In this document: positions 9,455-56,425 of the stretch, in pieces
How positions within the stretch are numbered: the stretch's first letter is position 1
How the letters are laid out: the number at the start of each line of letters is the position of its first letter
From: Escherichia coli
GTDB lineage: Bacteria > Pseudomonadota > Gammaproteobacteria > Enterobacterales > Enterobacteriaceae
Direction: 5' to 3' (one strand)
Length of the DNA stretch: 64,000 bases
Assembly (NCBI RefSeq): GCF_024223415.1
Contig: NZ_CP100500.1
Program-made: the position numbers and the translations under genes
Notes under the pieces: model-generated
Seen by the model: only the letters and a program-made list of their open reading frames with translations
What the model was told of the DNA's origin: nothing
Databases searched by the model: none

Positions 9455-9490
9455 TAAAAAAACCTGCTGGTGAGGCAGGTTCTTTTATTT
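9455..9490 (-). terminator. Rho-independent terminator downstream of yehK
   Basis: The aacctgc/gcaggtt stem is flanked by an A-run and a T-run. On the minus strand the hairpin is followed by TTTTTTT. Confidence 0.6.
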
Positions 9491-9650
9491 ACTATTTTCA
9501 GGCCTAACACCACAGCCTGTGCAACATCGTGTTCCAACGAACGAATTATAACCACGGCTGGACCCCGTTGCAATTAAGATAATGAGATTTATAATCCAGG
9601 CCATTGGGACGTTGCGCCGGATCGGACCAATTTGAATTATTTAGAGTATA

Positions 9651-13670: not shown

Positions 13671-16600
13671 TTATTCAAACAGGGCTTCAATATCGTTAAT
13701 TAGCTCGCTGGCGGTGATGGCATCGATTACGGAGAACTGCGCTTCCTGTGTTGAATTACTCCCCCAGCCATATCTTTCTGCTTTGCCTTCCCATAGCCAC
13801 AGCTTGCTTAAGAGCTGCTCAGCGCTGAGTTCGGCTGGCGACATGCCTACCGCAAAGCCTTCATCGATTTCCATGATTAACGACCAGCGACCCAAAGGTT
13901 TGATCATCCATCCGATCCAGCCTCCATCCTGTGGTTCGCCCTTTATCCAGCCTTTATTCGCCAGCCCCATGACCCGACCACTCGGGCATTTTCTGCCTGC
14001 CCAGCGGGTCAGTTCACTGGCATTGCGCTCGGCTTCTGTCAGGGCGTAGCTGTTACGGTCGATCTGGCGGAACGGTGGTAGCAGTTCGTAGTCGGCAAAA
14101 AGCTGACCAAAGGCGGCAGCATCCGTTGGTGATATTTCCAGAACGTGAGGAGTGCCGATAGAGATATCGCCTTCCGGCAGGGTGAAAAGATCATCGTCAG
14201 CGGTGCTGGAGCTGTTATCTTCTGCTACGCGAAAGCAAGCCAGTAGCTGGTTTTCGGCGCTATAAACGCCCCAAATCAGACGGCGGGTTAAGTGACGAAC
14301 CAGCGGATGCTCAACCAGGAAGAGCTGGAAGTTTTCCAGCGACCAGCGGCGGCGCAGGCACATGGCGGATTCCAGCCTTGCTACCTGCTGGGCGGCGATG
14401 GTACGCGCATCTTTTTTCAGCAATTTGTAGCGGTTAACCGCATCGTTCGCCCGCGTTTCATCATCGCTTTTGTTCGGTTTGGGCAGGTCTTTCAGGCGGC
14501 TGCCGGAAACATCACGCACAAACGGTTTTAAGGTTTCATCAAAGCTGACGGTGAACTGCCGTGGGCCAAAATCCAGCAGCAGCGAACCGTTATCATCCAG
14601 ACCGAGATCCGGTGCTAACCGATCTTCAAGCTCCGCCACCGTGAGTTCGCGGCTCTCGGCAATGTCGGCAATTTTTTCTTTTGCCCGCTCCTGTAATGCT
14701 TTGAATTTCAGTTTCTGGGCGATGCCGTTAAGCTGCATAAGGGCGATATCACTACCGATAGCAGCGAGAATATCCAACCCAACGGTGGCGCGTTTATGCT
14801 GGGATTCACCAGGCCAGGCGCGTATTAATGGCGTCAGTTTGCGGGCGGTGTCATCGTTACCGAGAACGCCTAACGCAGTGAACGCCCAACTCTCTTTCGA
14901 CGGCGCGCCAGCGGTCTGCCAGGCGGTAAACAGATCCCAGGCAAATCCCGCCAGTGAGTCGGCGGAACAGACGTCTTTCACCTGCAATAATCCCGGATAC
15001 AGAGCCTCTTCCTGAGGGAAGCGGAGCATTTCACCGAGGTGGAGGAGGGCGCTATCTGGCAGTGATTGGGCATTTGCTTTTAATACCGGGCGCGTCCAGA
15101 GCGATGGCTGATAAAAGGCCGGAAGAGTGGGGATTTTTGTCGGGTGATTATCTAAGGGATCGAGCGCAAGCAGAGCGTTCACCGCATCGGTTACTTCCGG
15201 CTGGTTATAACGTCGGGCGATTTCTTGCAGTAATGGCTGATGACCGTTTTCGGTAAGCATACGCAAGGCAGCGCGGGCGTTATCCTGGGCTTCACCGGCT
15301 TTGCCGAGCGCCGCAGGCAGCAGGCCGGTAAGGGCATGTTCCGGGTATTTCAACAGCCAGCTACGGGCGTTTTCGCGTAGCGTTTTCAGTTTGTTGAAGG
15401 CACGGGCGACGGCAGGAGCCAGCTCACTCGCTGCGAAGTAATTCGTGATGGGCAAGGCTTCTTGTGGATAGCGTGCAAGTGAGTTTACTAACCCAGGTAA
15501 CCCTTTGAGTCCAAAATGTAACATGGAGTATTCGGTATCGGTATGTGGAGATAGGGTAAGGGCATTCCATGCTTTTACTGCTTTCTCCAGCGGCAATGTT
15601 GTCAAAATCCCCAACTGCCAATAATGCCCGGTAGGTGAATGAAACACCTTAAATTCACTTAGTAAGGTTGAATAATCTTCATTTAGCCATGCCTCAACTA
15701 CCGCTTCGGGAGCTTTAATATATGTACCAGCGATCCGTCGTTGAAAACCCATCCTTGCCAACAGGTTGGTAGTACTTTCTTCATGGCTAACCGTGATGTG
15801 TTTTGAATACCAGATATATTTCGCCAAAAGTTGATTACTGATTTCTTCTGTCAGATAACAGATTGGCTCAATGCCTAATGGCGCTAAATCCAGCACCGGA
15901 ATCGGCGATTTTTTCTTTTTCGAAAGCCAGGGAGGGGAGACTACTACGGCTGGCAGTAGATCGGCGCTGGCATGGTTTGAGGGCTGTGTCAGTTGTTGCT
16001 GGCATGATTTCAGTACGGCAACTGCGGGTGTCGAGAGCCAGGGAATGACCTGTTCTGCCAGTGCTGGTTGTGAGATAAGCATTGTCATTAGCATAATGCG
16101 CCAACTGTTCTCTTCTTTTTGCCCAAGAAGTTCCGTCAGTGCCGCCATTGCTGCATGTGGGAACGCAGCAATGGCTTTCGTCATCCGATCGTGACAGCGT
16201 TTAGTTTGCCCGGCTACACGTATAAGCAGTGTCAATGCGAACGGATGATTGATATGACGCAACACATCGGCGCAGTAGTCACTTGCGGCATAGGGAGCAA
16301 ATCGGGGCAGGGCTGCAACACCTTGCTCCTGTAATACGGTGGCTGACCATATCGCACCACAATAGTAATCATCAAAAATGGCATATGGTTCGTGATATTT
16401 TTCTAATGAGGCAAGAATGTGCTCATCAGTCGCCACTATTTTTAACCACTCAAGCGAGGGTAATTTTTTTTGCCCCAGTAGACGCTGGGCAATTTCATGT
16501 GCAATTTCTGGTTTTTCGGGTAATAACAAAGCAATTAATGGTTGCCGCCATTCTGGAATATGTGGAATTGCTGCAATAAGTTTTTGTGCACATTTTTGCC

Positions 16601-28143: not shown

Positions 28144-28416
28144 ATGTCTCATACAATCCGTGATAAACAGAAACTGAAAGCGCGTGCCAGTAAGATTCAG
28201 GGCCAGGTCGTGGCGCTCAAGAAAATGCTCGACGAGCCGCACGAATGCGCTGCAGTTTTACAACAGATTGCTGCTATCCGTGGCGCGGTAAACGGTCTGA
28301 TGCGGGAAGTGATTAAAGGTCATCTGACGGAACACATCGTTCACCAGGGGGATGAGCTAAAACGTGAAGAAGATCTGGATGTCGTTCTGAAGGTGCTGGA
28401 TTCATATATCAAATAA
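28144..28416 (+). CDS. rcnR: Ni/Co-responsive repressor RcnR (CsoR/RcnR family)
   Basis: 90-aa protein [21 protein letters not shown], in the K-12 position. Confidence 0.92.
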
Positions 28417-28510
28417 TTTATTAACGCGATTGTAAAACTGCCGTTTTTCCTCGTTTACAACGCGTGCGCTGGACATTACCATCCTCCTCTGCGATTTATC
28501 ATCGCAACCA

Positions 28511-28557
28511 AACGACTCGGGGTGCCCTTCTGCGTGAAGGCTGAGAAATACCCGTAT
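28511..28557 (+). promoter_or_regulatory. 5' half of the thiM TPP (THI-box) riboswitch aptamer, cut off by the island
   Basis: aacgactcggggtgcccttctgcgtgaaggctgagaaatacccgtat equals the 5' part of the crystallised E. coli thiM aptamer. Similarity ends abruptly at 28557. Confidence 0.88.
28544..28557 (+). repeat. attL core (direct repeat copy 1)
   Basis: agaaatacccgtat is identical to 39954-39967. Confidence 0.8.
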
Positions 28558-28642
28558 TTTCTCATTTAGTGTTTTTTGTGGTTCGGGGTTGTTCGTGGTT
28601 GTTTGTGTATGTGTTTGATATATATTGAATTATTGTGTTTTC

Positions 28643-28718
28643 TTGTTTGTTGTTGTTCGTCGTTGTTCGTAGAGCTTCAACAAAATGTGTGGTCAGTTGT
28701 GTGGTCAGTTTTTTGAGG
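28643..28718 (+). repeat. Left-arm copy of a ~75-bp repeat shared by both island arms (candidate Int arm-type sites)
   Basis: 28653-28712 is 60/60 identical to 39831-39890. It contains tandem GTGTGGTCAGTT x2 and TTGTTCGT x2, and a further GTTGTTCGT copy lies near 28594. Confidence 0.8.
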
Positions 28719-28745
28719 CTGGAGGACTGAAAAGAGGATCTGATA

Positions 28746-29969
28746 GTGGGAAAAGCACTAAACAAACTGAGCGATTCGACGTTAAAAAAATTGGCGTCTG
28801 TCCAAGCAGAAAAAGAGCGTTTTTACTCCGACGGGGGCGGGCTGGAGATTAAACACTCAAAGGGCGGCAAATTAACCTGGTATTTCCGGTACCGAACGGG
28901 AGGCCGTGAGGTTGCCGCAGAGCGGTTAAAGCTGGGGGCTTACCCTGAATTGTCGCTGAAAGCTGCAAGGGAAAAACGCGCACAGTGCCGGGCATGGCTG
29001 GCTGAGGGTAAAAACCCCCGTTATGAGTTGTGCGCCACAGTACAGGAAGCGCTAAAACCCGTTACGGTGAAGGAGGCGATTAACTACTGGCTGGATGAAT
29101 ATGCGAAGGATAACCGCAAAGACTACATAAAGCTGGTGCAACGTATGGATAAGCACATCATTTGCCATATAGGGGCAATTCCCCTTGATAAGTGTGATAC
29201 AAGGCAGTGGATCGCATGTTTTGACCGTGTACGAAAAAAAGCACCAGTAGCAGCAGGGCACGTCATGCAAACCTGCAAACAGGCGCTAAAGTTCTGCCGC
29301 AGGAGACGCTACGCGTTCAGTAATGCCCTGGACGATTTGATCGTCAGCGATGTGGGTAAGAGAGCAGAAATTCGCGAGAGGGTGCACAGCAACAGCGAAT
29401 TAAAGGAAATTTTACGCGCTATTGATGGTGATGTGTTCGCGCCTTACTACAGCGCGTTAATGCGCTTGCTGATTGTGTTCGGGTGCAGAACGGCAGAGGT
29501 CAGACTTTCAGAGATCAAAGAATGGGATCTGAAAGAAATGTTGTGGACAGTGCCAAAAGAGCATAGCAAAACGAAGGTAACGATATTCAGGCCAATCCCC
29601 GATGGCATTTTGCCGTTCATTCAGAAGCTGGTGGAGCAGAACCGGCATACAGGGTTATTACTCGGAGAACTGAAAAAAGATACCACGGTAGCGCAATATG
29701 GGCGAAATGCGCATAAGCGGCTTAACCAGGAACACTGGACGCTGCATGACTTTCGCCACACGTTTACAACGATGCTGAACGATTTAGGTGTCGATCCGCA
29801 TATCGTGGAGCACATCACAGCGCATCAGATGCCCGGTCAGCAAAAAACCTATAACCATTCACGCTATTTACAGGCGAAGCGAGACGCTCTGAATCTGTGG
29901 GTTGAGCGCCTCGATGTGCTGGCTGGAAATCATGAAAATATTGTCATATTAAGGGCTGAAAATGAATAA
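28746..29969 (+). CDS. int: Tyrosine recombinase, P4-type integrase
   Basis: GTG start with a GAGGA RBS 7 nt upstream. The N-terminus resembles an arm-binding domain (GGGLEIKHSKGGKLTWYFRYR). The C-terminus has HDFRHTF...HQ...Y catalytic motifs. Confidence 0.9.
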   Translation: MGKALNKLSDSTLKKLASVQAEKERFYSDGGGLEIKHSKGGKLTWYFRYRTGGREVAAERLKLGAYPELSLKAAREKRAQCRAWLAEGKNPRYELCATVQEALKPVTVKEAINYWLDEYAKDNRKDYIKLVQRMDKHIICHIGAIPLDKCDTRQWIACFDRVRKKAPVAAGHVMQTCKQALKFCRRRRYAFSNALDDLIVSDVGKRAEIRERVHSNSELKEILRAIDGDVFAPYYSALMRLLIVFGCRTAEVRLSEIKEWDLKEMLWTVPKEHSKTKVTIFRPIPDGILPFIQKLVEQNRHTGLLLGELKKDTTVAQYGRNAHKRLNQEHWTLHDFRHTFTTMLNDLGVDPHIVEHITAHQMPGQQKTYNHSRYLQAKRDALNLWVERLDVLAGNHENIVILRAENE

Positions 29970-30747
29970 TCTGGGCCGTGTATATCATACGCTGCCAATG
30001 GCAGCTAAAAAAATGGGATGTACTGTAGAGGATATTCTACATTTTGGTGCAACTAACCGACTTGAAATATGTGCGTATATTGATGATATTGAACAGAGAA
30101 AAGATTATTGCACTTTTAATGTGTTTTTTGATAATGAAGATAGCGAGAATAGTTTTTCTAAAACTATAAATAAATATAATTCCATATTTACTGACATGTA
30201 TGAAATATCATTGTTTAATTATAATGATGAGTTTTGTGTTGATGATGAGCGTATGGTTATTGAAGGTTTGTATGCTAATCATATGAAAGGCTTTTTTGCA
30301 ATACCATCTGAATTTCTTGTCGAAGTTGAATTGTCAAGTGCCTGTGAAATCATAAATCTATCGCCTCGTTATTTATATACACCGAAAGGTTATGGTGATT
30401 ATATTCGGTTGGATAGTATAGAAGGTCTTTCTATTCCAGAAAACAGGCTCGTGATATTCGATAGTGAGATATCGGGTTTTAATTATCAAAAGAAACCTAA
30501 ATATGCCGGAGGTGAAAGAGAATCACCTAAAACCAGAGCTAAAAAAGCCGAGATAATACCTGCTCTCATAAAACTGATCCCTGAGATGCAAGATGTGGAT
30601 TTGGAGGATACACCCGTATCCAAAATTGCAGAAATGATAGAGGTTATTGCTGCACAAAGAGGGGTTGAGTTACCTAGCACTCACAGGCAGACATGGCAGA
30701 AATATTTAGGGCGTGATGCTGGTGACGTTCCAAAACGTCAAAAGTGA
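29962..30747 (+). CDS. Hypothetical 261-aa protein, strongly AT-rich cargo-like gene, with possible N- and C-terminal HTH-like segments
   Basis: The ATG overlaps the int stop (ATGAATAA). I recognise no family. Composition is visibly more AT-rich than its neighbours. Confidence 0.6.
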   Translation: MNNLGRVYHTLPMAAKKMGCTVEDILHFGATNRLEICAYIDDIEQRKDYCTFNVFFDNEDSENSFSKTINKYNSIFTDMYEISLFNYNDEFCVDDERMVIEGLYANHMKGFFAIPSEFLVEVELSSACEIINLSPRYLYTPKGYGDYIRLDSIEGLSIPENRLVIFDSEISGFNYQKKPKYAGGERESPKTRAKKAEIIPALIKLIPEMQDVDLEDTPVSKIAEMIEVIAAQRGVELPSTHRQTWQKYLGRDAGDVPKRQK

Positions 30748-30774
30748 TATCACGTACAGATAGTGTGATATCAC
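30744..30774. promoter_or_regulatory. Pair of perfect 10-bp palindromes GTGATATCAC upstream of alpA (candidate operators)
   Basis: Copies at 30744-30753 and 30765-30774, offset by 21 bp (two helical turns). Confidence 0.6.
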
Positions 30775-30803
30775 ACAAACGGCATTTTACCACCGCCTAG
30801 AAT

Positions 30804-30837
30804 CGTCCTCGTTCGGCAACGTTCGAGGACGTTTTTT
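30804..30837 (+). terminator. Hairpin plus T-run directly abutting the alpA start; its 3' arm contains the alpA Shine-Dalgarno
   Basis: cgtcctcg (30804-30811) pairs with cgaggacg (30824-30831) and is followed by TTTTTT, then the ATG at 30838. Confidence 0.6.
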
Positions 30838-31062
30838 ATGAATCAAAATACACAATTTCAATCACTATCAGATCGCGTAATCCGTGAGGATGAATGCCGT
30901 AAGTTAACAGGAGTGTGCCGCACTACACGCTACGAACTGGAGAAAAAAGGGAGCTTTCCGTCTCGCCGTAATCTTGGTGGGCGTTCTGTAGGTTGGCTGC
31001 TGTCCGAGGTTATGGAATGGGTTAAAAGCCGGGATCGCATTAATTCAGGCAAGGCAGCGTAA
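30838..31062 (+). CDS. alpA: AlpA-family (prophage CP4-57 regulatory / excisionase-like) DNA-binding protein
   Basis: 74 aa with the motif RVIREDECRKLTGVCRTTRYELEKKGSFPSRRNLGGRSVGWLLSEVMEWV, typical of the AlpA/Vis family. Confidence 0.85.
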   Translation: MNQNTQFQSLSDRVIREDECRKLTGVCRTTRYELEKKGSFPSRRNLGGRSVGWLLSEVMEWVKSRDRINSGKAA

Positions 31063-31080
31063 AGGGGAGTATATGACACA

Positions 31081-31109
31081 TAAAACAAAGGCGACCGGGG
31101 GCGGTCGCC
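31081..31109 (-). terminator. Terminator for the leftward two-gene repressor operon (convergent with alpA)
   Basis: The ggcgaccg/cggtcgcc 8-bp stem is followed on the minus strand by TTTGTTTTA. Confidence 0.55.
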
Positions 31110-31200
31110 AATGGGAAAACACTAAACATAAGCCCGGCCATCATAGCGATTTGCTGGCTGGTGGGCAATGTGTCCAGTGTGGTGGCTTGCTGGTGGATTG

Positions 31201-31428
31201 TCAGCCAGGCGGTCGGTTTTTGCCGGATTTAAGCCGCCGTGGGTATTTATCGACAAAATCTTCAAGGGCAAATTTTTCTGGTGGCACTAAGCGCGGCGCT
31301 GGTGGTGGTATTTTTGTTCTGGTTAGTTCTTCCTCAAGTCTGGCGCAGGCTTCTGACTGCCTTTGCCGGATGATTTCATCATCTTGCGTTTGCGTGTCTT
31401 GTATTGGTGATAGTGTGTTGTTGGTCAT
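31201..31428 (-). CDS. Hypothetical 75-aa protein, second gene of the leftward operon
   Basis: ORF downstream of the RHH gene on the same strand, with a weak RBS. It competes with a 336-codon plus-strand ORF that I judge spurious. Confidence 0.45.
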   Translation of the reverse strand: MTNNTLSPIQDTQTQDDEIIRQRQSEACARLEEELTRTKIPPPAPRLVPPEKFALEDFVDKYPRRLKSGKNRPPG

Positions 31429-31485
31429 GATACTGCCCTGTAAAGCAATGCGCCGTAGTACCTCACACCACGGCGCTGATAGTGA

Positions 31486-31683
31486 TTATTCTGATTCTTT
31501 GGCCTTGCGGCGCTGTTCATATTTTAATTTGCGTCCACAGGCATCTAAGACCCATGCGGAAAAATTAGCACTAGGATTAGTTAATTTTTCTTGTTCAACG
31601 CTGGCATCAATCCCATCTATAAGCTCATGTGGGAATCGAATATTTTTCTTTGCTGATTTGTTGTTTGTGTTACCACTAGACAT
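31486..31683 (-). CDS. Small ribbon-helix-helix (Arc/CopG-like) DNA-binding protein, candidate island repressor
   Basis: KKNIRFPHELIDGIDASVEQEK...FSAWVLDACGRKL fits a beta-strand plus two-helix RHH pattern. It has a good RBS (GAGGTG 7 nt upstream) and is divergent from the operator cluster. Confidence 0.6.
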   Translation of the reverse strand: MSSGNTNNKSAKKNIRFPHELIDGIDASVEQEKLTNPSANFSAWVLDACGRKLKYEQRRKAKESE

Positions 31684-31710
31684 TGATGCACCTCACTTAA
31701 ATGGACTTTA

Positions 31711-31790
31711 TGGGCGCACACAATACAGCAAAAAAAGTGAGAAGTTAAGTATTGACATGTGCGCACACATGATTCTAATCTGTGCGCACA
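31711..31790 (+). promoter_or_regulatory. Divergent control region: three TGTGCGCACA palindromic operators overlapping a rightward sigma70-like promoter
   Basis: Perfect palindromes at 31758-31767 and 31781-31790, plus a 9/10 copy at 31711-31720. TTGACA (31752-31757), a 16-bp spacer and TCTAAT (31774-31779) form the promoter. Confidence 0.65.
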
Positions 31791-31882
31791 GTTTGGGTTG
31801 CATTGCTCAAATTAAGCAACGCCCCGCAGTGCTCGCAACACATGCAGGGCGTCTAACCAAACCGTTAATAGGAGTAACGATT

Positions 31883-32083
31883 ATGGCTGGAACACAGCAT
31901 ACCCCACGCCTTGCGCACACACAAACCGCCTTTGTGTGGCGTTTTCTGGCACTGAGTGCCGGAGAATCTCAAATTATCCACGTAACCGCCTGGACGGAAC
32001 GCGAAGCGCGTAACCGTTGCCCGTCCGGTTGTGTCGCTGTATTCGCCGCCCGTATCCGTCAGGGGGAAACCTATGCACAATAA
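31883..32083 (+). CDS. Icd-like (P4 host cell division inhibitor-like) small protein
   Basis: 66 aa, MAGTQHTPRLAHTQTAFVWRFLALSAGESQIIHVTAWTEREARNRCPSGCVAVFAARIRQ. It has an AGGAG RBS. It resembles the family annotated Icd-like in P4-type islands (from memory). Confidence 0.6.
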   Translation: MAGTQHTPRLAHTQTAFVWRFLALSAGESQIIHVTAWTEREARNRCPSGCVAVFAARIRQGETYAQ

Positions 32084-32303
32084 AACAACACCGGACGCAG
32101 CAGAAGAAGCAATGCAAATACTGATACGTGCGCTCGTTGATGTTACCCACATGGTGGAGATTATGGAGAGAAAATCACAGTCGGAGCACGACAAAAGAAA
32201 ACTTAAAACAATAAAAATAATTGCCAAAAACTCGCTGATAAAAGTTACAGACATCCTTAATGAGGACATTAAAAGAATCAGGGAGAAAGTGTGTGATGCA
32301 TAA
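32073..32303 (+). CDS. Hypothetical 76-aa helical protein
   Basis: The start ATG overlaps the icd-like stop (ATGCACAATAA) and has an AGGGGGA RBS. Confidence 0.5.
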   Translation: MHNKTTPDAAEEAMQILIRALVDVTHMVEIMERKSQSEHDKRKLKTIKIIAKNSLIKVTDILNEDIKRIREKVCDA

Positions 32304-32523
32304 AATACCTTTTGATGTTCTTATTCATTCTGAAAACGCATTAATCCGTGCAAAGGAAATGGACGCATTACTACTTAAGTTAATTGATGTGCCGGAAAGT
32401 GGCGATGAATCTGATTCAATAATGTTTTCTGCCGTGCGTACGCTATTAACGCATGTTATTAATGAATTAAATACAGTGATGGCAATTCACGAGAATAATA
32501 AAGCGCAGCACACCGGAGAATAA
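32296..32523 (+). CDS. Hypothetical 75-aa protein
   Basis: The start overlaps the previous stop (ATGCATAA) and has a GGGAGA RBS. Confidence 0.5.
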   Translation: MHKIPFDVLIHSENALIRAKEMDALLLKLIDVPESGDESDSIMFSAVRTLLTHVINELNTVMAIHENNKAQHTGE

Positions 32524-32528
32524 AAACC

Positions 32529-32828
32529 ATGAAAAATAAAAATTCTGGCGTTAATGCCAGCGGCCCCGCTCGGCCTGAATTTATGAACGGCGATATTTAC
32601 CGCGACCAGTACGGCGGCACGGTAACGATTAAAGGCGTGGAGGAACGGCGCATCACTTACCGCCGTGAAGGCTACGAATATGATTGCGTGATGCCTGTTT
32701 ATCAGTTCCGGCGTGATTTTTCTCTGGTACAGGCAGCGCCCCGCAGTAAACCAACCAGCAGGGAGAAAGCACGCGCCAATATTCAGGAAATAAAAAAGAT
32801 GCTTAACGTATTCAGGGGTAAAAAATGA
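32529..32828 (+). CDS. Hypothetical 99-aa protein (DUF4222-like, common in enterobacterial prophage-like elements)
   Basis: The motif GDIYRDQYGGTVTIKGVEERRITYR supports the family assignment, which is from memory only. Confidence 0.5.
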   Translation: MKNKNSGVNASGPARPEFMNGDIYRDQYGGTVTIKGVEERRITYRREGYEYDCVMPVYQFRRDFSLVQAAPRSKPTSREKARANIQEIKKMLNVFRGKK

Positions 32829-34573
32829 AACTGGCACCGAACGTAAAAAAACAGCCGCGTGGAATAAAACACAAAGACACAGAGGTGATTATCTTTGCGG
32901 GTAGTGATGCCTGGGCGCACGCGAAACAGTGGCAGGAACAGGACGGCCCCGCATCCGGCGATGATGTGCCGCCTGTGTGGCTCGGGCCAAATCAGCTTGC
33001 TGAACTGGATGCACTGAAAATTGTACCGGAGGGAAAAAAACGCGTAAGGCTGTACAGGGCCGGAGAACTGGATTTGGTGGAGACCAAAAAGATTGGTCAG
33101 AAGCTGGCGGCGGCAGATATTCAGGATGCGAATTTTTACTCTGAAGGAATGCACGGCCAGAAGGTGCAGAACTGGCGGCGCTATCTGAGTGCTGAGCGTG
33201 AAAATATTGCCGCAGGGCTTACCATGCCGGAACAGAAAAAAGCACAACTTTCACAGATGGCAGACAGTGAACGGGCACAGCTTCTTTCTTCCCGCTTTGA
33301 TGGTGTCTGCGTCCATGCAGAAAGTGAAATCGTTCACGTATGGCGCGGCGGGGTATGGTGTCCGGTCAGCACAATGGAACTTAGCCGCGAAATGGTGGCG
33401 ATCTATTCAGAGCACAGGGCCACTTTCAGCAAGCGCGTAATCAATAACGCCGTGGAAGCGTTAAAAGTTATTGCCGAACCAATGGGCGAGCCGTCCGGCG
33501 ATTTGCTGCCGTTCGCCAATGGTGCGCTTGACCTGAAAACGGGGGAATTTTCCCCGCACACGCCGGAGAACTGGATCACCACGCACAACGGCATTGAGTA
33601 CACGCCACCAGCACCAGGGGAGAATATCTGCGACAACGCGCCAAACTTTCATAAATGGCTTGAGCACGCAGCCGGAAAAGACCCGCGCAAGATGATGCGT
33701 ATATGTGCCGCGCTGTACATGATTATGGCGAACCGGTACGACTGGCAGATGTTTATTGAGGCCACCGGAGACGGCGGGAGCGGCAAAAGTACATTCACAC
33801 ACATAGCCAGCCTTCTGGCAGGGAAACAGAACACGGTAAGCGCTGAGATGACATCGCTTGATGATGCTGGTGGGCGTGCGCAGGTTGTCGGGAGTCGGCT
33901 TATTGTCCTGGCAGACCAGCCGAAATATACAGGCGAAGGAACGGGCATCAAGAAAATCACGGGCGGAGACCCCGTGGAAATAAACCCGAAATATGAGAAG
34001 CGTTTTACGGCGGTAATCAGGGCGGTGGTGCTGGCTACCAACAATAACCCGATGATATTCACCGAACGGGCCGGAGGTGTGTCACGTCGTCGCGTAATTT
34101 TCCGTTTCGACAATATCGTCAGTGAGGCTGAAAAAGACAGGGAGCTACCGGAAAAGATTGCGGCTGAAATCCCTGTCATTATCCGCCGCTTGCTGGCGAA
34201 CTTTGCCGACCCTGAAAAGGCACGGGCTTTACTCATTGAACAGCGAGACGGTGATGAAGCTCTGGCAATAAAGCAACAGACGGATCCGGTTATTGAGTTT
34301 TGCCAGTTTCTGAATTTTCTGGAGGAAGCGCGCGGCCTGATGATGGGCGGCGGCGGTGACTCTTCCAGGTACACGACCAGAAACAGCCTTTACCGCGTCT
34401 ATCTGGCGTTTATGGCGTATGCAGGCAGGAGCAAACCGCTAAACGTAAATGACTTTGGCAAGGCTATGAAGCCAGCGGCGAAAGTTTACGGACATGAATA
34501 TATAACGCGCAGGATTAAAGGGTTTACGCAAACCAACGTGACAACAACAGACGACTGCGACGCGTTTTTATAA
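32825..34573 (+). CDS. Replication initiator/helicase, phage-plasmid primase P4-family C-terminal type (SF3 helicase); primase activity of the N-terminus is uncertain
   Basis: NGALDLKTGEF motif, Walker A GDGGSGKST and Walker B LIVLAD. ATGA overlap with the upstream gene. Iterons lie immediately downstream. Confidence 0.85.
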   Translation: MKLAPNVKKQPRGIKHKDTEVIIFAGSDAWAHAKQWQEQDGPASGDDVPPVWLGPNQLAELDALKIVPEGKKRVRLYRAGELDLVETKKIGQKLAAADIQDANFYSEGMHGQKVQNWRRYLSAERENIAAGLTMPEQKKAQLSQMADSERAQLLSSRFDGVCVHAESEIVHVWRGGVWCPVSTMELSREMVAIYSEHRATFSKRVINNAVEALKVIAEPMGEPSGDLLPFANGALDLKTGEFSPHTPENWITTHNGIEYTPPAPGENICDNAPNFHKWLEHAAGKDPRKMMRICAALYMIMANRYDWQMFIEATGDGGSGKSTFTHIASLLAGKQNTVSAEMTSLDDAGGRAQVVGSRLIVLADQPKYTGEGTGIKKITGGDPVEINPKYEKRFTAVIRAVVLATNNNPMIFTERAGGVSRRRVIFRFDNIVSEAEKDRELPEKIAAEIPVIIRRLLANFADPEKARALLIEQRDGDEALAIKQQTDPVIEFCQFLNFLEEARGLMMGGGGDSSRYTTRNSLYRVYLAFMAYAGRSKPLNVNDFGKAMKPAAKVYGHEYITRRIKGFTQTNVTTTDDCDAFL

Positions 34574-34861: not shown

Positions 34862-35119
34862 ATGCACACATCAGAAAAATTTAACAATCAGAAGAAATCA
34901 CATAACCGCGCCATTGACCTTACAGAGCACTGGCTGAGGGTGGCGATAAAAATCATCGACCGCAACGCGGGAGAAGGATACGCGAAAGCACATCCCGAAC
35001 TGATAAGCGCATTCATGACCACAGCGGCGGCAAACTTTGCCACGTTGACAGAACGGGAGATTGCCGAAGCGGAACAGGTGACAACCATCAATGTTAAAAC
35101 CGGAGAGCAGACAGCATGA
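34862..35119 (+). CDS. Hypothetical 85-aa protein
   Basis: ORF with a GAGGGGG RBS. Its stop overlaps the ssb start. Confidence 0.5.
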   Translation: MHTSEKFNNQKKSHNRAIDLTEHWLRVAIKIIDRNAGEGYAKAHPELISAFMTTAAANFATLTEREIAEAEQVTTINVKTGEQTA

Positions 35120-35526
35120 CAGCACAGATAGCGGCTTACGGGCGGCTGGTGGACGACCCGCAGACAAAACAGACCAGCAAGGGAACACCGATGACGCTGG
35201 CACGTATGGCGGTATCGCTGCCATGCAGCCAGGCACAGGATGGACAGGCGACGTTATGGCTATCGGTCATCGCATTTGGTAAGCAGGCCGACTTCCTGGC
35301 TAAACATCAAAAAGGCGACGTTGCCAGCGTATCCGGCACGATGCAGGTCAGCCAGTGGACCGGACAGAACGGGGAAACGCGGCAGGGTTATCAGGTTATT
35401 GCAGACAGCGTAATCAGTGCCCGTGCGGCACGTCCTGGCGGGAACAGACGCAAAACCACAGGCACACAGGGTAATCAGCCACCAGCGGGAGGCGATGACC
35501 CTTACGGTGATGATATTCCGTTCTGA
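35116..35526 (+). CDS. ssb: Single-stranded DNA-binding protein
   Basis: OB-fold-like N-terminus, a Gly/Pro/Gln-rich linker and the canonical acidic tip DDIPF at the C-terminus. Confidence 0.85.
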   Translation: MTAQIAAYGRLVDDPQTKQTSKGTPMTLARMAVSLPCSQAQDGQATLWLSVIAFGKQADFLAKHQKGDVASVSGTMQVSQWTGQNGETRQGYQVIADSVISARAARPGGNRRKTTGTQGNQPPAGGDDPYGDDIPF

Positions 35527-36050: not shown

Positions 36051-36257
36051 ATGGCAGAAGAGAAAAAAGGCGGGGTGACGGTCTACATAAGCCCCGACAT
36101 CGTGGAGGCGCTCAAGGAACGCCACCAGCAGAATGTAAAAGCAGGCATTGCGGCAGGACTTGATCCGCTGGCGATGGTTGAGCCGTCAACAGGCTGGCAG
36201 GTGCGTACCTATTTACGTGCGGCGCTGGGTATCAATCAGGTTCACGGAGGTGAATAA
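36051..36257 (+). CDS. Hypothetical 68-aa protein, first gene of the capsid module
   Basis: AGAGGA RBS. Its stop overlaps the capsid gene start (TAATG). Confidence 0.55.
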   Translation: MAEEKKGGVTVYISPDIVEALKERHQQNVKAGIAAGLDPLAMVEPSTGWQVRTYLRAALGINQVHGGE

Positions 36258-37312
36258 TGACAGGCAAAGCAACGGCACTTACAACTAACCAGCTTTTCGC
36301 GTACCTGAATCGCGGGGATATTTCGGAATTAAAATTCAGTCCGCTGTTTACCACGCTGTTTTTCCCGAACGTGGCGACCTTCAACACCCAAAACATCATG
36401 CTGGACACCCTGGACATTGAAGAGGTTACGATGTCAGCGTTCTGTTCGCCTATGGTGGGTAGTCAGGTCCAGCGCGATAAAGGGTACGAAACCAGCACAA
36501 TCAAACCTGGCTACATGAAGCCAAAGCACGAAATCGATCCAACAAAGACCATCATGCGCATGGCTGGAGAAGATCCGGCACAGCTTAACGACCCAACCTA
36601 TCGCCGTATGCGCCTGATTACTGGCAACATGCGCCGCCAGGTAAACGCCATTAAAGCGCGTGTTGAATGGCTGGCGGTGAATGCGGTAACGACCGGAAAA
36701 AACATCATTGAGGGCGAAGGCATAGAACGCTATGAAATCGACTGGAAAATACCGGAAAACTGCATCATACAGCAGGCCAGTGGTAAAAAATGGTCCCAGC
36801 AGGATAAAGACATGCACGACCCAATCTATGACATCGAGCTTTATGCTGATCAGGCAGGTTGCCCCGCCAACGTCATGATTATGGGCGGTGAGGTATGGCG
36901 CACATTACGCAGCTTTAAAAAATTCCGTGAACTGTACGATCTTTCCCGTGGATCAGAATCCGCCGCCGAGCTGGCCTGTAAAAACCTGGGCGAAGTGGTG
37001 AGCTTTAAAGGCTATCTTGGTGATCTGGCCCTTATCGTCTATTCCGGCAAATACACTGACAGCGACGGCACCGAAAAATATTTCCTTGAGCCTGATTTGC
37101 TGGTCCTGGGTAACACCAATAATAAAGGGCTGGTGGCATATGGTGCGATTATGGATCAGGAAGCGGTAAGAACGGGCGCAACGCAAAACATGTACTACCC
37201 GAAAAACTGGATTGAGGACGGCGATCCGGCGATTGAGTACGTGCAGACGCACAGCGCACCGCAGCCGGTACCGGCAGATATTCGCAAATTTGTTACCGTC
37301 AAAATTGCTTAA
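36257..37312 (+). CDS. Major capsid protein, lambda gpE family
   Basis: Collinear similarity to lambda gpE as recalled: PGYMKPKHEIDP vs PGYVKPKHEVNP, DPTYRRMRL vs DPAYRRRRI, and YPKNWIEDGDPAIEYVQTHSAP vs YPKNWVTTGDPAREFTMIQSAP. Length is 351 aa against 341 aa for gpE. Confidence 0.88.
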   Translation: MTGKATALTTNQLFAYLNRGDISELKFSPLFTTLFFPNVATFNTQNIMLDTLDIEEVTMSAFCSPMVGSQVQRDKGYETSTIKPGYMKPKHEIDPTKTIMRMAGEDPAQLNDPTYRRMRLITGNMRRQVNAIKARVEWLAVNAVTTGKNIIEGEGIERYEIDWKIPENCIIQQASGKKWSQQDKDMHDPIYDIELYADQAGCPANVMIMGGEVWRTLRSFKKFRELYDLSRGSESAAELACKNLGEVVSFKGYLGDLALIVYSGKYTDSDGTEKYFLEPDLLVLGNTNNKGLVAYGAIMDQEAVRTGATQNMYYPKNWIEDGDPAIEYVQTHSAPQPVPADIRKFVTVKIA

Positions 37313-39820: not shown

Positions 39821-39894
39821 TTGTTTGTTATTGTTCGTCGTTGTTCGTAGAGCTTCAACAAAATGTGTGGTCAGTTGTGTGGTCAGTTTTGAGG
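39821..39894 (+). repeat. Right-arm copy of the ~75-bp repeat shared by both island arms
   Basis: 39831-39890 is identical to 28653-28712. Confidence 0.8.
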
Positions 39895-39953: not shown

Positions 39954-39967
39954 AGAAATACCCGTAT
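39954..39967 (+). repeat. attR core (direct repeat copy 2)
   Basis: agaaatacccgtat is identical to 28544-28557. Confidence 0.8.
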
Positions 39968-40048
39968 CACCTGATCTGGATAATGCCAGCGTAGGGAAGT
40001 CACGGACCACCAGGTCATTGCTTCTTCACGTTATGGCAGGAGCAAACT
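39954..40048 (+). promoter_or_regulatory. 3' half of the thiM TPP riboswitch aptamer plus its expression platform
   Basis: agaaatacccgtatcacctgatctggataatgccagcgtagggaagtcacgg...ggcaggagcaaact continues the thiM aptamer exactly where 28557 stops and runs to the thiM ATG. Confidence 0.88.
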
Positions 40049-47841: not shown

Positions 47842-47985
47842 GCCTTATACGGACAACACCACCCCGTAGGACGGATAAGGCGTTTACGCTGCATCCGGCA
47901 ACCTATGCCTGATGCGACGCTGAAGCGTCTTATCATGCCTACATAGCACTGCCACGTATGTTTACACCGCATCCGGCATAAAAAC
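47842..47985. repeat. REP/BIME cluster
   Basis: gtaggacggataaggcgtttacgctgcatccggca, tgcctgatgcgacgctgaagcgtcttatcatgcctaca and tgtttacaccgcatccggcat are typical E. coli REP sequences. Confidence 0.85.
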
Positions 47986-56253: not shown

Positions 56254-56341
56254 AAAAAAATAAGCCCGTGTAAGGGAGATTACACAGGCTAAGGAGGTGG
56301 TTCCTGGTACAGCTAGCATTTTATGGGTTATGTTTTTCAGC
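56254..56341 (-). ncRNA. cyaR: CyaR (RyeE) Hfq-dependent sRNA
   Basis: The minus strand reads gctgaaaaacataacccataaaatgctagctgtaccaggaaccacctccttagcctgtgtaatctcccttacacgggcttattttttt, which is the CyaR sequence as I recall it. A CRP half-site TGTGA-N6-TCTAA is centred about 42 bp upstream (56376-56391) and a TATCAT -10 is present. Confidence 0.9.
56255..56281. other. Apparently unoccupied phage P2 attB (locI-type core) overlapping the cyaR terminator
   Basis: aaaaaataagcccgtgtaagggagatt matches the 27-nt P2 att core as I recall it. No ogrK/yegZ remnant lies between yegR and cyaR. Confidence 0.55.
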
Positions 56342-56425
56342 GAAACGGATGATAACCTTAATAAATGCAGCTGTATGTGATCGGTTTCTAAGAATTTTCC
56401 ATCCGGGAAAAATAATCGAAATTAA

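Follow-up and report, generated by a model that had tools for sequence, protein, structure and literature searches.

Twin palindromes and a Shine-Dalgarno-masking hairpin in the predicted control region of alpA in a satellite island of Escherichia coli

Background

AlpA is the master activator of Gram-negative phage-inducible chromosomal islands (PICIs). It activates its own promoter, its over-expression leads to uncontrolled excision and replication that harm the cell, and helper phages switch on alpA at the promoter level through an unidentified factor (PMC6092414; PMC11773190; bioRxiv 2022.09.08.507074). How such a gene is held silent, and what turns it on, is the question raised by a 64-kb stretch of Escherichia coli DNA (64,000 nucleotides of contig NZ_CP100500.1, assembly GCF_024223415.1; hereafter, the window). 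Judged from its sequence, the interval from 28.5 to 40.0 kb of the window is a Gram-negative PICI-type satellite of ~11 kb that lies inside the thiM thiamine pyrophosphate (TPP) riboswitch. Bases 30744-30840, between orf261 and alpA, are proposed here to be the control region of alpA, the product of which would start the life cycle of the island. An earlier note on this DNA had claimed that transcripts reading through from int and orf261 would be both terminated and translationally masked in front of alpA, and that the gene would need a dedicated trigger such as antitermination, a promoter within 30775-30803 or melting of a hairpin. We propose that an operator pair acts on a promoter without a -35 element, which fires inside a hairpin that otherwise silences read-through, and we would put the probability of this model at about one half. 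The searchable literature gave no description of cis-elements upstream of alpA, of the palindrome found here or of the phage inducer. The features on which the argument turns are as follows.

28746-29969, plus strand: int, the tyrosine integrase gene of the island (Pfam Arm-DNA-bind_3 and Phage_integrase), first gene of the int-orf261 unit towards alpA
29962-30747, plus strand: orf261, coding for a conserved hypothetical protein of 261 aa, candidate binder of the palindromes
30744-30753: putative operator 1, GTGATATCAC, which supplies the orf261 TGA (family consensus GTGAWWTCAC)
30765-30774: putative operator 2, GTGATATCAC, with a predicted centre at about -40 of the alpA promoter
30798-30803, plus strand: TAGAAT, putative -10 element of the alpA promoter (6.6 bits, the best score of a -10 position weight matrix between operator 2 and the ATG)
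30804-30831, plus strand: RNA hairpin with 5' arm CGTCCTCG (30804-30811, anti-Shine-Dalgarno), a 12-nt loop and 3' arm CGAGGACG (30824-30831, with the Shine-Dalgarno sequence)
30825-30829, plus strand: GAGGA, the Shine-Dalgarno (SD) sequence of alpA, in the 3' arm and 8 nt before the ATG
30832-30837, plus strand: T6 tract, which makes the hairpin terminator-like in this lineage
30838-31062, plus strand: alpA, of the master activator/excision-factor family of Gram-negative PICIs (Pfam Phage_AlpA, PF05930, 4.4e-16; PHROG excisionase/transcriptional regulator)

Conservation of the region upstream of alpA

Two perfect palindromes had been noted in front of alpA, and direct reading confirms their coordinates, their distance and the position of the first over the upstream stop codon. 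The two copies of GTGATATCAC stand 21 bp apart, start to start as well as centre to centre, with an 11-nt gap, and the TGA of orf261 (30745-30747) lies within palindrome 1. These are the only exact copies in the window, where the sole copy with one mismatch is at 14743, outside the island. No further GTGAWWTCAC with up to one mismatch was found in the island except for GTGAAATCAT at 30344, which is at chance level.

Homology to this region among complete E. coli genomes falls into tiers. The whole region is present in 65 genomes. It occurs in O157:H7 strains, for example those of the L006 type. A second tier matches only from 30807 onward (hairpin and alpA) and has a DUF6387 gene in place of orf261, and a third matches alpA alone, starting at codon 11, and has int and alpA without an intervening gene, as in the cspD-site island of IHE3034. 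The homology breakpoint at 30807 separates the palindromes from the hairpin. DUF6387-type islands of Pectobacterium, Klebsiella and a Morganella-like source have the same hairpin without the palindromes. In the islands with DUF6387 in this slot at loci L007, L123, L124 and L125 (loci and lineages are given by L numbers throughout), the SD-masking hairpin and an A-rich hexamer are kept and the upstream sequence is different in each, for example CAATATTG in L007 and TTGCCGTCGCAA in L123. The slot between int and alpA looks like an exchangeable module.

More divergent relatives were collected by a pattern scan of viral contigs and by choosing orf261 homologues on protein similarity, which yielded about 16 lineages from Escherichia, Yersinia, Serratia, Klebsiella aerogenes, Pluralibacter and several metagenomic sources. 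A search of genome contigs for AlpA returned only three distant alphaproteobacterial or deltaproteobacterial loci, and none of the enterobacterial phages in the phage collection matched the alpA control region of the window by BLAST. One layout is common to all of the lineages: the end of orf261 (its TGA usually taken from palindrome 1), GTGAWWTCAC, 11 nt, GTGAWWTCAC, 22-23 nt, an A-rich hexamer, the hairpin, 3-8 nt and the start codon. Palindrome 2 precedes the start codon by 62 nt in 11 of the 16 (range 60-69). The spacer between the palindromes is constant in length (11 nt; 10 in L116) and unconserved in sequence. Within the palindromes, variation falls mostly on the two central W positions and the GTGA and TCAC half-sites are kept, as is expected of two half-sites; the exceptions, one substitution each, affect palindrome 1 (L103, L106 and L117) or palindrome 2 (L116). 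The comparison of these divergent relatives shows the putative operators to be conserved in sequence and geometry, and by this measure both the palindromes and the hairpin are under selection and not there by chance.

Hairpin and U-tract

The 8-bp GC-rich hairpin with GAGGA in its 3' arm was found as the earlier note had described it (30804-30831; GAGGA at 30825-30829). The T6 tract, which was said to end one base before the ATG, abuts the ATG at 30838 with zero bases between. Six of the eight stem pairs are G-C, and two extra C-G pairs around a GCAA tetraloop are possible within the 12-nt loop. The predicted folding energy is -18.0 kcal/mol (z = -4.85; 0 of 200 shuffled sequences as good), and the interval 30740-30860 folds at -35.7 kcal/mol (z = -5.5).

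Covariation shows that this structure is selected as RNA. In a stem-only family alignment 96% of the cells were paired and seven of nine pairs had compensatory changes on both sides; none of 500 shuffles reached the observed score, and slid controls were 33-55% paired. The compensatory arm pairs are CGTCCTCG/CGAGGACG, GCCCTCG/CGAGGGC, ATGCTCTCG/CGAGAGCAT, ATCCACCTG/CAGGTGGAT, GCCTCCAC/GTGGAGGC and ATGCTCCTG/CAGGAGCAT. G-U pairs are present in the family hairpins and would be C-A mismatches on the opposite strand, so that the hairpin is to be read on sense-strand RNA. The SD sequence is paired in the hairpin in all 16 lineages and in the DUF6387-type islands. Judged by covariation, no feature of the alpA control region is under stronger selection than the hairpin.

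The earlier claim that read-through would be both terminated and masked stands in its second half, given a buried SD sequence and the covariation of the arms, and is not supported in its first half as a conserved function, given the distribution of the U-tract. The tract is present in the window and in L001, L097, L026, L088 and L104, and absent from L100, L103, L106, L108/110/113, L076, L078, L116 and L117, so that about one in two of the lineages with the hairpin is without it. The Serratia type is among those that lack the tract. Since the hairpin covaries while the U-tract occurs in only about half of the lineages, SD masking rather than termination appears to be the conserved function, and termination is plausibly a lineage-specific addition that is present in the window. 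As to the form of the structure, its stem lies within the ~5-12 G+C-rich base pairs of a terminator stem and its 12-nt loop lies outside the ~3-8 nt of a short-loop terminator. With more than 8 nt in its loop, the hairpin went unlisted in a consensus terminator scan.

A different use of the same elements would be that hairpin and T6 form a true terminator of int-orf261 and that alpA is triggered by N- or Q-like antitermination from a helper phage. The known helpers of E. coli PICIs are lambdoid phages, and in the window T6 directly follows a G+C-rich stem of -18 kcal/mol. However, many lineages keep the hairpin without the U-tract, the loop is long for an intrinsic terminator, the SD sequence would still be masked in read-through RNA, and the island contains no boxA-like YGCTCTTWA of an N-type nut site. 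With the U-tract unconserved and no boxA-like element in the island, antitermination is unsupported among the triggers that the earlier note had considered, and we regard this explanation as very improbable. Literature searches on alpA and antitermination returned no papers.

Candidate promoter and proposed mechanism

Of the triggers that had been put forward, a promoter within 30775-30803 fits best: TAGAAT at 30798-30803 has in every lineage a counterpart whose distance from the palindromes is fixed. There is no recognisable -35 element (ACAAAC occupies its position), and a generic promoter scan found nothing here. At the equivalent position, 23-28 or 24-29 nt after operator 2, a hexamer of the form xAxxxT is found in 13 of the 16 lineages and TTAAAT in the other three, the forms across lineages being TAGAAT, CAGAAT, TAAGGT, CACTAT, AAACAT, CAAAAT, CAATAT, AATAAT and TTAAAT. 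As a -10 candidate, this hexamer ranks first in eight of the 16 lineages and within the top three in 15, and it directly abuts the 5' arm of the hairpin in every one. If TAGAAT is the -10 element, the operator centres fall at approximately -40.5 and -61.5, and the distance of 22-23 nt is invariant across lineages. The predicted start region, at the end of the arm or the first bases of the loop, is AAC in most lineages, which is a good initiating context. A transcript that begins 3' of this arm is predicted to have hardly any structure (0 to -4 kcal/mol), as compared to -10 to -18 kcal/mol with the arm.

The following mechanism is proposed. The two 10-bp palindromes (GTGA-WW-TCAC), which are two helical turns apart, would serve as an operator pair for a protein bound to one face of the helix, the likeliest binder being Orf261, whose gene ends within palindrome 1. 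A weak sigma-70 promoter without a -35 element would have TAGAAT, 23 nt after operator 2, as its -10 element, and the operators would accordingly be centred near -40 and -61, where activators that contact RNA polymerase classically bind. Because the -10 element directly abuts the 5' arm, transcripts from this promoter would begin at approximately 30810-30813, would lack the anti-SD arm and would have a free ribosome-binding site. Transcripts from upstream, whether from the host thiM promoter or from int-orf261, would contain the full hairpin and have the SD sequence hidden, in every lineage, and in this lineage T6 would additionally make the hairpin a plausible terminator of read-through. The hairpin would then work as an insulator, and the gene of a dangerous master activator would stay silent for as long as its own promoter is off. 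A start inside the hairpin would make melting of the hairpin, another of the triggers suggested earlier, unnecessary, and it would explain the rigid spacing of the three elements across lineages in which the intervening sequence is unrelated.

Several observations weigh against this placement of the promoter and start site. The -10 candidates are weak (1.5-6.6 bits), the TTAAAT of three lineages is without the key A at -11, and the final AT of the hexamer, like the A-run in lineages that have a U-tract, can also be read as a prolongation of the stem. Moreover, L100 and L078 have a better hexamer 6-8 nt upstream, which would place the hairpin in the mRNA. A start upstream of 30804 would turn the hairpin into a translational off-switch within the alpA message that needs a trigger in trans, such as a helper-phage protein, a small RNA, an RNA chaperone or temperature. 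The conservation of the hairpin as RNA and the constant presence of the SD sequence in it would agree with such a switch, and the 12-nt A-rich loop AACnnTAAnnAA, which is conserved in length and partly in sequence, could be a binding site. On the other hand, the interval between operator 2 and the hairpin contains no other conserved pairing partner or promoter. Rfam covariance models matched nothing in 28400-33000 at E<=1 and nothing in the island at gathering score, and published reporters of other PICIs show promoter-level induction, although these fusions may include the leader. An off-switch in the message is in our view rather doubtful.

Palindromes and Orf261

The palindromes are best read as a protein-binding operator pair that travels with orf261. 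Loci that were picked by Orf261 protein similarity alone, and not by DNA motif, all carry the palindromes, which are kept down to 33-36% Orf261 identity in the ~16 lineages. Across the recombinant backgrounds of alpA islands the motif is 100% linked to orf261; in L097, L098 and L099, int-orf261-alpA is common and the downstream sequence differs (with or without a DUF3950 gene). Islands of the L007 and L009 type have a DUF6387 gene or no gene in the orf261 slot, and the motif is missing over 5 kb in L007 and within 5 kb in L009. Co-inheritance of the palindromes with orf261 is evident from these sequences, and the linkage suggests that Orf261 binds the pair.

The same islands bear on the idea that the palindromes are autoregulatory sites of AlpA itself. 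Positive autoregulation has been demonstrated for EcCICFT073 and EcCIMP1, and the palindromes sit at activator positions. Yet the AlpA of L007 is 92% identical to that of the window (6 of 74 residues differ) and the AlpA of L009 is identical from residue 12 to the end, which includes the DNA-binding region, and neither has the motif. The pair also occurs only once in the island, whereas AlpA must act at other promoters or att sites as well. We judge autoregulation through these sites improbable.

Two points tell against Orf261 as the binder, apart from the weakness of its fold match (below). Half-sites of 4 bp that lie 6 bp apart suit a ribbon-helix-helix dimer better than a classical helix-turn-helix dimer, and the identical pair GTGATATCAC-N11-GTGATATCAC is found once without orf261, in a lambdoid prophage fragment (L027). 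The palindromes might accordingly be bound by a protein encoded elsewhere, such as a helper-phage regulator, a host factor or the YlcI/YnfO-type protein of the island (31486-31683, minus strand), with orf261 a linked passenger. The short half-site spacing, the location of the L027 pair downstream of a Q gene and an antirepressor gene, and GTGATATCAC repeats that precede ribbon-helix-helix genes in actinophage contigs are all in keeping with this. It is countered by the complete linkage of motif and orf261 over the recombinants L097, L098 and L099, by a phage collection in which no enterobacterial phage matches either the control region of the window or the L027 segment, and by the separate palindrome set, TGTGCGCACA, that lies next to the YlcI-like gene. 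A binder of this kind seems unlikely, and Orf261 is retained as the candidate.

The L027 pair itself occupies 2165-2195 of IMGVR_UViG_2588253800_000018, right after an ORF6N/P22_AR_C antirepressor gene that is preceded by a Q antiterminator gene, and is followed by a T-run. A BLAST search of the segment against the phage collection gave no match, and BLASTP detected no similarity between Orf261 and the antirepressor. The pair could be due to chance, be a terminator, or hint at a phage protein that uses the same operator.

That the palindromes act as RNA, as a 10-bp stem with an 11-nt loop that stabilises or terminates the orf261 message, has the smallest probability of the explanations considered, and we give it hardly any weight. 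They are paired by RNAalifold, GTGAAATCAC and GTGATTTCAC in L108, L110 and L113 are exact mutual complements, and the T-run of L027 would fit. Any pair of palindromes, however, pairs trivially; the mismatches in L103, L104, L106, L116 and L117 are uncompensated, no U-tract follows the pair in the PICI family, and a strict 11-nt loop on an AT-rich stem is atypical.

Known sites were compared with the palindromes by reading the sequence. The TGTGA/TCACA halves of a CRP site fit, but the spacer is 2 and not 6 bases; the TATCAC/GTGATA halves of lambda operators are wrongly arranged; and the TGT-N12-ACA dyad of P2 Ogr and P4 Delta is absent. A promoter made of the palindromes (GTGATA as -35, GATATC as -10) would be without the key -11A and -7T, and a MerR-type site between -35 and -10 would have its flanking hexamers in unconserved sequence. 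A literature search for the 10-mer GTGATATCAC returned primers only.

Similar palindromes were observed in phages. A low-GC phage family of ~57 kb has (G)TGATATCA(C) repeat arrays with 12-nt spacing near a strong promoter (loci L012, L016-L020 and ~40 more from IMG/VR sample 3300045988; L054, L056 and L075 are listed alongside), and several high-GC phage contigs have GTGATATCAC repeats ahead of ribbon-helix-helix genes. Unrelated phages seem to have recruited this palindrome as an operator.

Orf261 appears to be a novel protein with an Xis/MerR-like winged helix, as suggested by a weak fold match. Its profile had no match among Protein Data Bank (PDB) sequences, a Foldseek comparison of its model with viral structures gave nothing significant, and profile-profile comparison found it unrelated to DUF6387. 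A tentative extension, which we consider possible though not likely, is that a sub-family of Gram-negative PICIs has in Orf261 a sensor and regulator encoded by the island itself. It would be made constitutively with Int, sit on the twin operators and be switched by a helper-phage protein, either by de-repression, as for Stl of the Staphylococcus aureus pathogenicity islands (SaPIs), or by conversion to an activator. If true, this would explain how helper infection turns on alpA, and orf261, DUF6387 or no gene in the int-alpA slot would be exchangeable modules for sensing, with helper specificity depending on which of them is present.

Comparison with known systems

The kinds of element described here are known; their arrangement, and a module of Orf261 with its putative operators, are undescribed for PICIs in the searchable literature. 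The alpA promoters of EcCICFT073 and EcCIMP1 resemble that of the window in serving the same gene at the same position after int. However, these islands have neither orf261 nor the GTGAWWTCAC pair, both of which are present in the island of the window, and the region upstream of an EcCICFT073-type alpA has no sequence in common with the window region.

The closest likeness of the hairpin is to insertion sequences (ISs). In the 'fold-back inhibition' of IS10 and IS50, reportedly described by Davis, Simons and Kleckner in 1985 and by Krebs and Reznikoff in 1986, only read-through transcripts are said to carry the arm that masks the transposase start. In IS200, a terminator at the left end and an SD-sequestering stem-loop act against impinging transcription (PMC4513863). 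In all of these, as proposed for the window, a mobile element uses a hairpin that pairs the ribosome-binding site of a dangerous gene to protect that gene from external promoters. The promoters of IS10 and IS50 start inside the structure, as would that of alpA, where the internal start is predicted rather than mapped; IS200 adds a separate terminator, whereas the hairpin of the window would combine both jobs. The protected gene also differs, being a transposase gene in the insertion sequences and the gene for a transcription and excision activator in the satellite. The hairpin suggests that satellites protect themselves from outside transcription in the way that insertion sequences do, which is relevant for the island of the window because it sits directly behind a host promoter.

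For the putative operators, the models are activator promoters with tandem sites, namely lambda CI at OR1 and OR2, which activates PRM, and the class I and class II sites of CRP at -61.5 and -41.5. The likeness is in two dimer sites on one face of the helix, the proximal of which abuts the -35 position of a promoter whose -35 element is poor or absent. Unlike these, the sites of the window are 10 bp long with 4-bp half-sites, are spaced by 21 bp and have a putative binder.

In satellite P4, vis, the alpA homologue, is expressed from the late promoter PLL, which Ogr of the helper P2 or Delta of P4 activates from a TGT-N12-ACA dyad at around -55. The context of PLL and vis is mentioned in PMC10111431. 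As may be the case in the window, where the promoter is predicted, a gene of the alpA family heads a unit that is transcribed from an activator-dependent, helper-responsive promoter, but the alpA control region of the window has no such dyad, and its putative operators have another sequence and lie elsewhere relative to the start. Among the window open reading frames (ORFs) that were examined, none was recognised as one of the P4 core genes sid, psu and delta.

Were Orf261 a helper-sensing repressor, its counterpart would be Stl of Gram-positive PICIs and SaPIs, likewise encoded by the island next to int and in control of the switch gene. No similarity in sequence or fold was found between Orf261 and Stl master repressors, and the position of the operators in the window suggests activation, not repression.

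The alpA region provides a precise, conserved and mutable target, with two 10-bp putative operators, a promoter candidate of fixed geometry, an insulating hairpin and one candidate trans-factor, Orf261. The question of how a helper phage turns on PICIs thereby becomes testable.

Island context and further observations

The island has the co-directional int-alpA-primase order of PICIs, a size in the ~10-15 kb range and att repeats at both ends; no tail or lysis genes were recognised in it. The 14-bp att core AGAAATACCCGTAT occurs at 28544-28557 and 39954-39967. The 3' end of int overlaps the start of orf261 by 8 nt, which suggests that the two form one transcription unit running to alpA. Besides the genes given above, the island contains the following.

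31486-31683, minus strand: YlcI/YnfO-type ribbon-helix-helix gene, divergently oriented
32825-34573: D5-type primase gene
35116-35526: ssb-like ORF
36257-37312: ORF in synteny with a gene of the related island L001 that is annotated 'phage major capsid protein'
Within the island: a DUF4222 gene and a terS-like gene

The island is co-directional with the thiM promoter and lies behind it and a truncated TPP aptamer: the thiM promoter candidate TTTACA-17-TACCAT (28454-28482) and the 5' half of the aptamer now face int. The riboswitch is split (28490-28557; 39954-40048), thiM itself is preceded by the 3' half of the aptamer only, and Rfam no longer detects a TPP riboswitch at the split thiM site. 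Regulation of thiM and thiD is probably altered in this strain. Just inside both island ends (28653-28713 and 39831-39891) is a direct repeat of ~61 bp, TTGTTCGTCGTTGTTCGTAGAGCTTCAACAAAATGTGTGGTCAGTTGTGTGGTCAGTTTT, which holds a tandem TGTGTGGTCAGT; these end repeats are likely to be arm-type Int sites or excision-factor sites.

A second operator set lies at 31711-31790, with TGTGCGCACA at 31758 and 31781 and TGGGCGCACA at 31711. It adjoins the divergent YlcI/YnfO-type gene and brackets TTGACA (31752-57)-N16-TCTAAT (31774-79), a strong promoter candidate directed towards the rightward replication operon, and it looks like a repressor-controlled switch. The leader of that operon contains a terminator-like hairpin and T-run (31918-31938). 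The 5' arm of this hairpin, CACACAAACCGCCTTT, is 88% identical to CACACAAACGGCATTT, the 16 bases 3' of palindrome 2 (30772-30787), a likeness that could reflect a common binding site or a P4-like, termination-based immunity element.

No obvious plus-strand terminator was found for alpA. Directly 3' of the gene, at 31090-31109, is a G+C-rich hairpin, GGCGACCGCCCCCGGTCGCC, whose T-run is on the minus strand; transcription of the convergent minus-strand genes (31201-31683) probably terminates at this hairpin. Outside the island, Rfam matches at gathering score were obtained for OrzO-P antitoxin RNA (9456-9531, minus strand), naRNA4 (47869-47939, plus strand) and CyaR (56258-56343, minus strand).

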